A stretch of DNA of 64,000 nt, from positions 417,521 through 481,520 of the forward strand of contig CAWDZM010000001.1 of assembly GCA_963807165.1 (NCBI GenBank). Reading direction: 5' to 3'. The stretch is from an uncultured bacterium (GTDB lineage: Bacteria > Patescibacteriota > Minisyncoccia > UBA6257 > 2-01-FULL-56-20). Shown here one piece after another: positions 7,480 through 19,793 of the stretch; the first letter of the stretch is position 1; each line of letters opens with the position of its first letter. The position numbers and the translations under genes are program-made. The notes under the pieces are model-generated. The model made no database searches. It had not been told where the DNA came from and saw nothing but the letters and a program-made list of their open reading frames with translations.

Positions 7480-7980
7480 TTAGAAGCCAGTTGCCGAAAG
7501 AGGGAATGACATCGAGAACGAGTATCCTCCTTGTCCATCCTGCTGGATATTCAATACCGGAAGCGTGACGGTTCCGAAGTGCGGATCGCTCTGGATCGCA
7601 CTCTTGAACGCGGCGATCTGATTCGTCGACGGGGCGGTGCCCGCCACAAGGATCGGGGCGCTTGCCGCTTGGAAGGAAATATTATTAACGCTCACGCCAT
7701 TCGCCGCCGCCACATTGTTTATCTCGCCGATCATTTCATAATTTTTATTGATCTGTGACTCCGCGTTAGCCGCGAGAGCAACCGATTGATTGAATGCCGT
7801 CGAAGATGCAGCGAGGGCCGCAGCTTCAGCAGATTCCCCTCCTTGTGAAGTAAATGTTCCCTGTGCGTCAACTCCAGCCTTTACCATAGAGAGAAAACTG
7901 CTGGCGCAAAAAAAGGTGATGACCAGAAATCCAAGCACCGTCGGAATGAGCACGCGCCAGAGGTTCATAAAATGCAACAT
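7480..7980 (-). CDS. PilN/PilO-like type IV pilus assembly protein.
   Basis: It has an N-terminal transmembrane segment (VLIPTVLGFLVITFF) and lies immediately downstream of pilM. The start is taken at the internal Met. Confidence 0.5.
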   Translation of the reverse strand: MLHFMNLWRVLIPTVLGFLVITFFCASSFLSMVKAGVDAQGTFTSQGGESAEAAALAASSTAFNQSVALAANAESQINKNYEMIGEINNVAAANGVSVNNISFQAASAPILVAGTAPSTNQIAAFKSAIQSDPHFGTVTLPVLNIQQDGQGGYSFSMSFPLSATGF

Positions 7981-7987
7981 GCGTTCA

Positions 7988-9028
7988 TCATAAAAAGTAT
8001 CCAGTGCGCCTTCGCGCCGATAGGTTGATCTCTTTATCTTTCGTATTCGCATGGAGCCCGCGCAGAGCGCATCCGAAGGCCACAAACCACTCCGGAGAGA
8101 CTCCTTGTCCTTGTGTGAACGTCAACGGGATGACAGGGAGTGCAACCGATTCATCAATCGCCTGCCGCGCCTCCTTTTCGAACGCCACCGGAGAAAGGAT
8201 GACGCCCACGAGCGGGTCCGGCCAGTGCTGTGCATAAAAATTCGACACTTGGCGCAAACTTCCGGCAAGCATCTCCTGAAATTTATTGATAGAGACCTGG
8301 CCTTTCTCGTCGGTAAGGTCGGCCCATTGGTTTGGATATTCGAAATAGAGCCGACCCTTTCGCACTACCAAGAAATCAATACCGGAATTATCGATGTCGA
8401 GCAGAAGATATGACTTATCCATCGCCACGCCGCTCCCCTGTTCACGCACGATGCGAGTGAGCGCGAGCGCGCGCGATTCAACTCCCACTGTGATGAACCC
8501 GCCCTTATAGAGTGCCTGCACCATCTCATCGACAACCCCTTTATCAACGAACGCGGCGGCGATATCCGACCGCAGACTCACCTCATCACGCCCCAAAAAT
8601 TGCCAGCCATAATAGGCATGAGCAATGTCCACCGGCGACACCATCTGCACATTCAAATTAATTGCCTTATCAAGATCGTCCCCTTCCATAAAAGGGAGCG
8701 TGAACACCTGGCTATAAATATTGACTGAACTCAGCGACACAACGACATTCATTTTTCTTCCTTTTTTCTGTCCAGCGGGCAGCTTAGATTTCAAATCTTG
8801 TAGCGCAGCGGCGAACGCCGGTACATCTTTCACTTTCCCTTTTTCCATAATGCCCGGCGTGAGGCGGACCGCTTCCATCTTCCACGCTCCTTGATCAACA
8901 TAGACGCATCGCAAAACCTGATCGCTGATCTCCAGCCCGGCGGCGTTCACGCGGATCCGCAAAGAAGAAAGAATTTTTTGGAAAAATGATTTGATGGATT
9001 GCATAGAAATTATTGGATCTCGGTCCAT
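7988..9028 (-). CDS. pilM: Type IV pilus assembly ATPase-like protein PilM.
   Basis: The actin-like PilM/ComA family pattern LLDIDNSGIDFLVV is present. The protein is 346 aa and lies in the pilus operon. Confidence 0.8.
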   Translation of the reverse strand: MDRDPIISMQSIKSFFQKILSSLRIRVNAAGLEISDQVLRCVYVDQGAWKMEAVRLTPGIMEKGKVKDVPAFAAALQDLKSKLPAGQKKGRKMNVVVSLSSVNIYSQVFTLPFMEGDDLDKAINLNVQMVSPVDIAHAYYGWQFLGRDEVSLRSDIAAAFVDKGVVDEMVQALYKGGFITVGVESRALALTRIVREQGSGVAMDKSYLLLDIDNSGIDFLVVRKGRLYFEYPNQWADLTDEKGQVSINKFQEMLAGSLRQVSNFYAQHWPDPLVGVILSPVAFEKEARQAIDESVALPVIPLTFTQGQGVSPEWFVAFGCALRGLHANTKDKEINLSARRRTGYFL

Positions 9029-9435
9029 GAAACAATATTGATCTGTCCGGTGGTAGCATTCTCCGAAACCACTACATTGATCTTTTTAGTATGGCCGCTT
9101 ACCGTCGCGGTGGAAAGGATTGTGGCGAGACCCGCCGAGGGAGAACTTTGGGTGATGGTGACCGTTGCTGTTGCGGAGCTCGTGCCAGAGACGGTATATC
9201 CAGGAGAAGGGTTGGAAAATACACTATTCCTATCAAGCTGCAAAAGACCGTCCTCCGCGCCCGCCGTCGCCGCAGACTCGGCGCTAAAGGCCGCCGCGAC
9301 GCCGTATCCGGTATCGAGCGATGATGCCGCGAAGAATGCAATAAGAAGGCCGGCGACGGCTACCAATCCTCCGATAAAGAACACCAGTGCCAAAAATGTT
9401 TGACCTTTGTTGAAAGAGGGATATCCCATCCTCAT
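9010..9435 (-). CDS. Minor pilin-like protein.
   Basis: The N-terminus KGQTFLALVFFIGGLVAVAG resembles a degenerate prepilin hydrophobic helix. The rest is Ser/Thr-rich. Confidence 0.45.
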   Translation of the reverse strand: MRMGYPSFNKGQTFLALVFFIGGLVAVAGLLIAFFAASSLDTGYGVAAAFSAESAATAGAEDGLLQLDRNSVFSNPSPGYTVSGTSSATATVTITQSSPSAGLATILSTATVSGHTKKINVVVSENATTGQINIVSWTEIQ

Positions 9436-18918: not shown

Positions 18919-18985
18919 AGTATCGTTCCTTAATAATAGCAGAGCGCCCGACAAAATAAAAAGCGCCGGCCGAAGCCGACGCTTT

Positions 18986-19684
18986 TTATACCGAATACGA
19001 TACAAGATCTACTCTAGAGACCAGCAAATTCGTTCCTGACTCCAAAGTGCATATGGAATTTCCGCCGTCGGTCGAGTCGACATCGCCCGTACCTCCCTGC
19101 GTTGTACTTCGCGCTCTCCGTCTTAGTGGAAAGCTTGTATGTAGTTGCCGCGCCCACATACGTGTAGACGTTGGTCGCCAGCTATCGACCGGATCCACAG
19201 GCAAGAGCACCGATAGGAGCTCCCGAACTGATCACATTGAAGTTGAGGGGAATCCATCCGGCACCCGTGATCGCACGCGCAGCGCTTCCGGCGGCTGCAC
19301 TGACGAGAGTGGTGCCACACCTGACGAAGATATCCCCAACCCGTACCAGAGTTGGTGTGCAAGTAGTGGCACAACCGGAGCTGTGGTAGAAGCGAGTGGT
19401 GGCGACTATCACCAGACTATCGGTCCGATAGGAATATCGTGCTGTCGAAGTTGTAGATCGGACCGACTCTGCACGTGGTCGTTGTCGACATCTTCAGAAT
19501 ACAACCCGATGGCGCTCTTCAGCGTTGCGAAGTCAGAGACACGGTTCGAGTCCCTCGACTGGCGCAAAAGTTCCGCCGGGTTAAGGGTCAAGATGACGAC
19601 GACTGCCAAGATTGCGATGATCGCGATAACGACCAACAATTCGATAAGGGTGAAGCCCTTCTGGTTTTTTAGATTTTTTCTCAT
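18986..19684 (-). pseudogene. Type IV pilin, paralog of the 25321 pilin N-terminal region, disrupted by about four frameshifts.
   Basis: The N-terminus MRKNLKNQKGFTLIELLVVIAII is intact for 91 aa. Homology to the 25321 pilin (GWIPLNFN, TDGGNSICTLESGTNL) then continues across three frames. A TATAAT -10 box lies at 19741-19746 on the minus strand. Confidence 0.5.
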
Positions 19685-19793
19685 GTTTTATCTTTTGATA
19701 GATATGTTAGAGAACCTCGACCTTTTATTCTCTTGCTTTCATTATACGATACCCTAGGAAATGAGCCATGTGGATAAAGTCCACCCCTAACTT

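Follow-up and report, generated by a model that had tools for sequence, protein, structure and literature searches.

What kind of filament is encoded by a compact pilus gene cluster in the genome of an uncultured ultrasmall bacterium, and what might the unusual exported proteins encoded among its pilins contribute? The question is raised by positions 7480-19760 of a 64,000-nucleotide (64-kb) stretch of contig CAWDZM010000001.1, here called the window, where one tightly packed minus-strand cluster had been read in an initial annotation as a type IV pilus (T4P) locus with five exported or membrane proteins as non-standard cargo. The hosts and the means of attachment of the Paceibacterota, a large and almost wholly uncultured class of ultrasmall bacteria, are essentially unknown, and pili are the main suspected attachment organ. 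The explanation that we consider probable is that the cluster is a secretin-less T4P operon into which a four-gene cassette has been inserted, adding a device for host or surface recognition.

The window is part of a Candidatus Paceibacterota/Minisyncoccia genome. Its PilC is 84-89% identical to that of eight soil and peat metagenome-assembled genomes labelled with this name, the next-best match being 33%, and the gene order in these eight is the same as in the window. The single minus-strand cluster is confirmed, as are pilB, pilC and three genes with prepilin motifs (156, 205 and 266 amino acids) through the Pfam families T2SSE, T2SSF and N_methyl. A class III prepilin signal (Gly, then F/Q-x-x-x-E and a hydrophobic helix) was found in five genes of the window by a regular-expression scan and N_methyl matches. 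The analysis supports the cluster as a T4P operon of an ultrasmall soil bacterium of the Patescibacteria with a conserved and distinctive accessory gene set. Its elements, in the direction of transcription, are as follows (a slash marks the cleavage site).

18986..19684, minus strand: pilA, a major-pilin-type prepilin (N_methyl 4e-11), of which the first 91 codons alone are in frame.

17203..18918, minus strand: pilB, extension ATPase, 571 amino acids from MKLPISPDQ as in relatives, with 81-84% identity to relatives.

17133..17165, minus strand: terminator-like hairpin between pilB and pilC, with a 15-bp stem and a T-run (fold z = -4.56).

15853..17061, minus strand: pilC, platform protein, 402 amino acids from MLFHYVAAD, matching T2SSF at 1.9e-50 in two stretches.

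15376..15846, minus strand: core minor pilin 1, 156 amino acids, MRKG/FTLIELL, N_methyl, present in all core loci.

14751..15368, minus strand: core minor pilin 2, 205 amino acids, SG/QSFVEIM, N_methyl at 21.3 bits, with a homolog in locus L082 at 1.5e-64.

13833..14738, minus strand: GW protein, 301 amino acids, with a Sec-type signal (AFA/GG), three W-x-W-x4-G-W-[IM]-x-F units and a C-terminal jelly-roll.

13005..13805, minus strand: cassette gene 1, a 266-residue prepilin, MKAKG/FTLIEML, N_methyl at 8e-8, with the C-terminal tail-fibre repeat NVGINTLSPYAQLSVNGG and a conserved Cys pair.

12408..12980, minus strand: cassette gene 2, a membrane-anchored cupredoxin-fold protein of 190 amino acids (Cupredoxin_1, PF13473, 2.6e-10, 40.7 bits against a cut-off of 27).

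11927..12388, minus strand: cassette gene 3, a 153-residue N-terminally anchored protein with the motif SPYSAVYLxTGDIYFG.

10362..11930, minus strand: cassette gene 4, a 522-residue Sec-exported chimeric tail-fibre-like protein, with an N-module (residues 1-190), GNVGIGTTxP repeats and a C-terminal tip.

9448..10365, minus strand: variable slot, a 305-residue membrane-anchored protein with no homolog in most relatives of the genus.

9010..9435, minus strand: core 141-residue protein, with a hydrophobic N-terminus G/QTFLA without Glu5, followed by the stretch AAAFSAESAATAGAEDGL.

7480..9028, minus strand: pilMN, split by a frameshift into a 346-residue PilM part and a 201-residue PilN part.

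Comparison with distant Paceibacterota divides this cluster into a core and an insert. In three of them (L082, L162 and L163) the corresponding chromosomal slot holds a compact pilus locus without the cassette. The order in these loci is a 177-residue and a ~70-residue transmembrane protein, rluD, pilA in one or two copies, pilB and pilC, followed by a ~150-residue prepilin, a 210-358-residue prepilin, the GW gene, a ~150-170-residue homolog of the 141-residue protein, a fused pilMN, pth, lepB and hisS. The GW and 141-residue proteins are therefore core components, being present where the cassette is absent. Relative to this core, the genus of the window has five extra genes between the GW and 141-residue genes, encoding the 266-residue prepilin, the cupredoxin-fold protein and the 153-, 522- and 305-residue proteins. 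The first four keep their order in relatives of the genus; of the 522-residue protein only the first ~190 residues are conserved there. The five accessory proteins of the initial annotation thus do belong to a conserved set, but not to a loose cargo: the GW protein is core, the rest is cassette, and the 141-residue gene had been missed. The cassette is a discrete conserved unit led by its own prepilin.

The extent of this unit was followed through a metagenome scan seeded with the 153-residue family, which yielded 76 loci. The cupredoxin gene lies directly upstream of the 153-residue gene in 43 of 53 evaluable loci, the cassette pilin lies upstream in 33 of 38, and a fibre gene with the same N-module lies downstream in 38 of 57. 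Exceptions to this order are the most distant members of the 153-residue family, yet these stand beside pilB-pilT-pilC or beside the 141-residue gene and pilMN. The family was found next to pilus genes in the distant lineages L147, L151, L153, L154, L157 and L158. Upstream sequence of 6.5 kb or more is available for 21 loci, and 8 of these are embedded in a pilB-pilC operon like that of the window. The cassette is a separable and probably mobile module, because stand-alone copies exist: that of L140 lies on another contig of the genome that also has L082, a core locus lacking the cassette, and that of L084 (10352-11913) adjoins a Y1 (IS200/IS605-type) transposase and is followed by leucine-rich-repeat and fibronectin type III surface proteins. 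The transposase is a hint of mobility. In our literature searches we met no published account of the cassette, and none of pilin-tail-fibre fusions or the GW family.

A link between pilin and fibre is seen in the first gene of the cassette. Residues 182-219 of the 266-residue pilin align with residues 362-399 of the fibre protein (37% identity, E 0.035) and represent one unit of the same repeat. A homolog of this pilin, P0124 (54% identity over 265 amino acids, E 6e-87), continues into fibre repeats and a tip domain that is 77% identical to residues 380-522 of the 522-residue protein; it heads a cassette of the same order in L084. Two further members of the pilin family, P0471 and P0484, carry the phage tail-fibre tip domain Gp53-like_C of Pfam (3e-7, above cut-off). 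Judged from sequence, these fusions are the strongest evidence that the pilin and the fibre may work together.

The 522-residue protein itself resembles tail-fibre-type adhesins. Its signal peptide belongs to a set of 37 in which the cleavage context AxA/F-x-G-P is conserved. In a BLAST map of 120 homologs, residues 6-190 recur only N-terminally, residues ~327-402 are repeats of the GNVGIGTTxP type, and residues 380-522 recur only C-terminally, on otherwise different proteins, some of them from other phyla. Homologs also carry Peptidase_S74 or Gly_rich_2 at the C-terminus. With an invariant N-terminal module and mosaic, exchangeable C-terminal parts, the protein follows the pattern of mosaic adhesive trimer (MAT) fibres. 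Below the top Foldseek match, which is considered later, the next matches are stems of phage tailspikes, tail fibres and pyocin fibres, with probability 1.0 over 74-113 columns. Phage tail-fibre elements normally trimerise, and the low predicted local distance difference test (pLDDT) scores at residues 190-330 of the modelled monomer would be compatible with, and no proof of, folding only as a trimer. The fibres of relatives span lengths of 209 to more than 1275 amino acids, and the slot after the fibre holds unrelated proteins of 462 amino acids in L005 and 261 in L008, and none in L004, in sister genomes; both features suggest rapid diversification.

That slot holds the 305-residue protein in the window, for which a single homolog was found, in L088. 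The suggestion that it is PD40-like is not borne out: searches of Pfam and NCBIfam gave no match even at E 10, and the best PDB match (E 0.42, hence none better than E 0.4) is unrelated, so that a PD40/WD40-like protein was rejected.

The two small membrane-anchored proteins of the cassette differ in what can be said of them. The cupredoxin-like protein of the initial annotation has the fold, with PDB matches, the best at 3.6e-7, to nitrite reductase and CuA domains. In the alignment to CuA domains its first His is replaced by Tyr and its Cys pair is C-x2-C, not C-x3-C; across 48 members of the family the motif FYCxSCGGPxKGPVG is invariant and there is no conserved His or Met. A canonical copper protein of type 1 or CuA was ruled out, since the His and Met ligands are missing, and a thiol/redox or metal-handling role is our guess. 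The 153-residue family is large, with 406 clusters at 50% identity among 1.84 billion representatives, and the 150 members listed are 68-229 amino acids long with no obvious fusions. It has no relative in Pfam, NCBIfam or PDB, including searches at E 10 and with family profiles. A phage origin was rejected, as no relatives were found in the viral contigs of IMG/VR.

Of the core components, the GW protein is the most distinctive. Its three repeat units, already noted in the initial annotation, are read directly from the sequence. The family comprises 1332 detected homologs, none of them named and none with a Pfam domain. The protein itself has no Pfam or NCBIfam match and no PDB sequence relative, including searches at E 10 and with family profiles. 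The AlphaFold2 model is confident (pLDDT 88) and gave no PDB fold match under E 0.02; for the C-terminal jelly-roll, weak matches to phage tail proteins were found at the domain level only. A beta-propeller or von Willebrand factor A domain of the PilY1/PilC type was not found in it by Pfam, NCBIfam, PDB sequence or fold searches. In some relatives it is fused to N-terminal extensions, giving proteins of 878-2015 amino acids. Large surface proteins are also accepted elsewhere in the operon (L001, 5502-9956; L004, 11986-14622; L008, 1272-4148; L099, 1189-7236), and in L001 the pilB-pilC junction has received an insert that encodes a 1484-residue Sec protein.

The 141-residue gene stands directly before pilMN in all core loci. 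No hidden Markov model (HMM) of Pfam or NCBIfam and no PDB sequence matches its product, including searches at E 10 and with family profiles. We take it to resemble PilX/GspK-type non-canonical minor pilins, a likeness that no HMM confirms, and its N-terminal motif makes it a candidate for this class. Judged by position, the two core prepilins, the 141-residue protein and the GW protein would form the priming and tip set of the pilus.

The remaining core genes are more conventional. PilB matches T2SSE at 8.4e-118 (393.7 bits, cut-off 24.9) and the MshEN N-terminal domain at 1e-12 in Pfam, and a tetracysteine CPSC...CSSC is visible in its sequence. NCBIfam models for GspH, GspJ and GspI match the N-termini of minor pilins; core minor pilin 1 matches ComGD at 5.6e-8 and GspH at 9.5e-8, both under cut-off and with likeness at the N-terminus only. 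Separate pilM and pilN/O-like genes had been proposed downstream. The PilN family match stands (PF05137, 27.2 bits, 3.9e-6, cut-off 22.8), but the two are one frameshifted gene: pilMN is a single fused gene of 498-514 amino acids in every relative examined (L001, L004, L008, L082, L088, L162 and L163), so that the 98-nt overlap of the two reading frames is a frameshift and not translational coupling. The sole match of the PilM part is TIGR01175 (7e-10), at 38 bits far under the 133-bit cut-off, and Pfam PilM_2 gave no match to it.

The genes from pilC to pilMN form a single operon despite the gaps between them. Contrary to the proposal that most are coupled by overlaps of 4 nt, such overlaps occur at only 2 of 11 junctions (153/522 and 522/305). 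At the remaining junctions from pilC to pilMN the genes lie 6-27 nt apart, except for one overlap of 19 nt, and the spacer between pilB and pilC, which holds the hairpin, is longer. Where the initial annotation had placed an internal terminator, a strong terminator-like hairpin was recovered. It is followed by TGGTATTAT, which resembles an extended -10 element and stands 7 nt ahead of the conserved start of PilC; the window has just two instances of the pattern YTAGG-N6-GTATWAT, one upstream of each of pilA and pilC. The hairpin is species-specific, its sequence not being found in any fetched relative locus. In L082, positions 5341-5829 encode a 162-residue polytopic membrane protein between pilA and pilB (TspO/MBR at E 0.017 only) that the window does not have.

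Starting from the gene identities, the conservation and order of the cassette, the mosaicism of the fibres and the pilin-fibre fusions, which are observed directly, we infer the attachment of the fibre to the pilus, its trimeric state, its role as an adhesin and the roles of the two small proteins. The cassette pilin would be processed and inserted like any minor pilin, leaving its C-terminal stub of tail-fibre repeat exposed. The 522-residue protein would be exported by Sec, cleaved at AxA/F and form a phage-tail-fibre-like, probably trimeric, fibre. Its invariant N-module may dock to one of two partners, the stub of the pilin or the pair of membrane-anchored cassette proteins, leaving the interchangeable C-terminal tip to bind the target. 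The cupredoxin-fold and 153-residue proteins might then act as extracytoplasmic factors for assembly or anchoring, and the CxxC of the former may act on the conserved pilin disulfides. The positional role that falls to PilY1 or ComZ in other systems would here be that of the GW protein. On this scheme the cassette probably equips the pilus or the cell surface for the recognition of host cells.

Several observations weigh against this reading. Prepilin peptidase (PilD, peptidase A24) and the retraction ATPase PilT were not found in a machinery scan of the window that covered 39 further ORFs beyond the cluster and its close surroundings and took in most, not all, ORFs of at least 110 amino acids; the same scan found no secretin, as the initial annotation had stated for all three components, and no comEC or comEA. 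The scanned neighbours are housekeeping genes (ftsZ, ftsA, hisS, lepB, pth, rluD, dprA, topA, relA/spoT, parAB, infB, gyrB and others). A second ATPase, of 356 amino acids, is present in the distant relatives L147, L153, L154 and L158, which have pilB-pilT-pilC. No pilB, pilC or GW gene lies upstream of the cassette in 13 of the 21 loci with at least 6.5 kb there, although 4 of these 13, with distant 153-residue homologs, have pilB-pilT-pilC ~3 kb downstream; such stand-alone loci show that the cassette is separable from the operon, which is not proof that it works without a pilus. The four cassette genes are not an obligate unit either, because in L151 and L157 the 153-residue family stands beside pilus genes without cupredoxin or fibre genes. 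The sole PDB sequence match of the fibre, to Bdellovibrio Bd2133 (8OND), is weak (phmmer E 0.006 over 73 residues), and so is the top Foldseek match to the same structure (1.5e-3, probability 0.77, template modelling score below 0.2). The AlphaFold monomer of the fibre reaches a pLDDT of 67 and is confident only in the C-terminal beta-sandwich (~400-520). The roles proposed for the cupredoxin-fold and 153-residue proteins are guesses. Finally, the pilA and pilMN genes are broken, as described below.

The likeliest alternative, although we hold it to be unlikely, is that the accessory genes encode ordinary surface or secreted proteins, such as S-layer-associated fibres or adhesins, which are co-transcribed with or inserted into the operon and are independent of the filament. 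The GW, 522-residue, cupredoxin-fold, 153-residue and 305-residue proteins all carry Sec-type signals or plain N-terminal anchors and no prepilin motifs, 13 of the 21 cassette loci have no pilB, pilC or GW gene upstream in at least 6.5 kb, the GW paralog P0040 sits in a non-pilus context, and the pilB-pilC junction takes unrelated inserts such as the 1484-residue protein of L001. What speaks for the filament is that the cassette almost always starts with its own prepilin (the 33 of 38 loci given above), which needs the pilus machinery, that fusions of pilin, fibre and tip exist, and that the 153-residue family stands beside pilus genes even in distant lineages.

The broken genes bear on a second alternative. 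The initial annotation had taken a 91-residue ORF for a fragment of a pilin paralog; it is the 5' part of a full-length major-pilin gene. A tblastn search with the intact pilins of 202-217 amino acids from L001-L005 tracks pilA of the window through frames 2/1/2/1/2, that is at least four frame switches in ~650 bp, with homology reaching the C-terminal GGNSxCTxExGTNL motif. In pilMN the frame jumps near 8020-8035. The plus-strand topA gene (23050-25229) is also split, into overlapping ORFs of 272 and 469 amino acids, with Pfam profile positions ~110-147 lost between them and a frameshift around 23700-23820, which brings the broken genes in the 64 kb to three. The frameshifts of pilA and pilMN reflect either local assembly error or a decaying pilus in this strain. 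Were they real, the pilus would no longer be made and the cassette would be a relic, a reading to which we give a smaller share of belief than to that of independent surface proteins. The 522-residue protein is identical on a 726-kb NCBI/ENA contig and on an independently assembled contig of run ERR10755936, and the latter differs from the window by four single-nucleotide polymorphisms and no indels over 7822 bp, so that indel errors are not general. This independent contig leaves out pilA, the pilMN junction and the topA break, however. That topA, an essential gene, is split as well speaks for errors of local assembly; no other ORF of the pilus or the cassette is broken, and consensus errors arise easily in hypervariable pilin regions when populations are mixed.

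Less credible again is a competence pilus whose accessory proteins would be DNA receptors or uptake factors, a function compatible with a role in adhesion. Natural transformation in cultured Saccharibacteria needs pili and comEC. The gene dprA lies nearby, at 21750-22922, and minor pilins of the locus weakly match ComGD, ComGE and ComGF. These matches reach at best 17-34 bits against NCBIfam cut-offs of 49-80 and cover the N-terminal helix only, comEA and comEC were absent from the ORFs scanned, and the pilA-type gene encodes ~210 amino acids, twice the length of ComGC. The proximity of dprA, from which DNA uptake had been proposed, carries no signal, because dprA is paired with topA in an ordinary block that relatives retain next to the locus whether or not they have the cassette, and the proposal gains no specific support from it. 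The initial annotation had also named two outcomes that would tell against its proposal. Accessory proteins matching minor pilins or tip adhesins were found in part (the 522-residue protein is adhesin-like and relatives of the pilin have tail-fibre tips), and the cluster was not found to be a standard com operon.

Most improbable is a type II-secretion-like pseudopilus that would push the Sec-exported accessory proteins as cargo through the cell wall or S-layer: PilB, PilC and pseudopilin-like minor pilins with N-terminal GspH/GspJ/GspI matches are common to both systems, the window scan found no retraction ATPase and cargo-like proteins are encoded within the operon, but the long major pilin (202-217 amino acids in relatives) and a 659-residue lectin-like modular pilin fit a surface filament, a secretin or outer membrane is not expected, and the pilin-fibre fusions place the adhesin on the filament subunit itself.

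A T4P operon with an inserted recognition cassette thus remains the reading we prefer. A farther-reaching proposal, which is tentative and which we doubt more than we trust, is that this clade of Paceibacterota has domesticated phage tail-fibre modules onto the T4P, with a minor pilin as the carrier of the tip or the socket for a trimeric fibre with swappable tips, and with two novel membrane proteins, one of them a copper-less CxxC cupredoxin, that assemble or anchor the fibre. If so, a mobile four-gene cassette would be a host-range determinant of uncultured episymbionts, comparable to a phage receptor-binding module on a retractable filament. The locus in any case offers candidate determinants of host recognition in the movable pilin/tail-fibre cassette and in a core GW family of more than 1300 members without a known fold relative. 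The practical value is modest for now, and we infer all that goes beyond gene content, synteny and domain fusions.

Two further features outside the cluster may belong to the pilus system.

20927..21705, minus strand: a pair of transmembrane proteins of 177 and 79 amino acids, upstream of rluD-pilA.

25321..27300, plus strand: a 659-residue modular pilin (N_methyl 2e-5, DUF2341 3.8e-4).

The transmembrane pair keeps its position in L001, L004, L005, L082, L103, L162 and L163. The 177-residue protein consists of a transmembrane segment, a coiled region and an alpha/beta domain, and its hhalign comparison with the PilN part is weak (probability 18.6%, E 0.0013); the pair is a possible candidate for a PilO-like component. 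The 659-residue protein comprises a pilA-like pilin domain, an immunoglobulin-like stretch, DUF2341 and a lectin-like C-terminus, and its N-terminal 200 amino acids match pilA of relatives at 36-64%. It is kept near the locus in L003, L004 and L005, and probably gives this pilus system a second adhesive subunit. Elsewhere in the window, a 1070-residue protein at 58444-61656 (minus strand), in which NHL repeats and three fibronectin type III domains are combined with a peptidoglycan-binding domain at the C-terminus, is a candidate surface protein for host interaction. A Mutator-family transposase of 348 amino acids at 38549-40322 (plus strand), preceded by two small ORFs without a family match, marks a mobile element amid housekeeping genes. 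ARAGORN called a tRNA of undetermined identity at 3227-3300 (plus strand) with a four-base anticodon (agcc), which could be an odd anticodon loop or a miscall.

How, then, does this locus compare with known systems? Minor pilins and PilY1, such as FimU-PilVWXY1E of Pseudomonas and their counterparts in Myxococcus, are thought to prime assembly and to end at the tip as an adhesin (PMC7541494). As in that complex of type IVa pili, several low-abundance pilins and one large Sec-exported non-pilin are encoded together, here between pilC and pilMN. Unlike PilY1 systems, the locus has a GW protein with no relation to PilY1 in sequence or fold, no secretin, a fused pilM-pilN and an extra tail-fibre-like cassette. 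Of the competence tip proteins ComZ/PilA2 of Thermus thermophilus, ComZ is a large beta-rich, pilin-like protein encoded among minor pilin genes and proposed to sit at the pilus tip. The proteins of the window differ in having no detectable similarity to ComZ, and in the Sec-type signals of the GW and fibre proteins.

Earlier work has described Patescibacteria pilus loci in which the pilins are poorly conserved and there are minor pilins that are large and adhesive. In the passages of PMC11623550 that deal with TM7x (Nanosynbacter lyticus), its T4P-1 and T4P-2 loci combine conserved machinery with poorly conserved pilins, and large minor pilins are proposed to be host-binding tip adhesins. The present cluster is likewise a Patescibacteria pilus, and the 659-residue modular pilin appears to be of the large adhesive minor pilin type. 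Unlike the window, TM7x locus 1 is reported in those passages to hold pilT, pilD and pilO as well, and they describe no cupredoxin-fold, 153-residue or tail-fibre-like protein for the TM7x loci.

The modular pilins PilB and PilC of Streptococcus sanguinis, in which an adhesive or lectin module is grafted onto the C-terminus of a pilin module (PMC8179133), resemble both the cassette pilin family and the 659-residue pilin. Here, unlike in S. sanguinis, the grafts are phage-tail-fibre elements, and the long fibre of the window is separate and Sec-exported.

The closest parallel to the 522-residue protein is found in the MAT fibres of Bdellovibrio, such as Bd2133 (8OND), which resemble phage tail fibres, have an invariant N-terminus and swappable tips and serve in prey recognition (PMC10769870); on a link to type IV pili that paper only speculates. 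Differences are evident, in that the similarity is weak and limited to the repeat or stem, the N-module is unrelated, and the gene stands in a pilus operon behind a dedicated pilin, to which some relatives are fused. The architecture is nonetheless shared: an invariant N-module, a repetitive fibre and an exchangeable C-terminal tip, with a Peptidase_S74 end in some homologs and not in others. Bdellovibrio, too, lives by attaching to other cells, and the parallel with its chimeric fibres suggests that bacteria with such a way of life have converged on a solution or share one.

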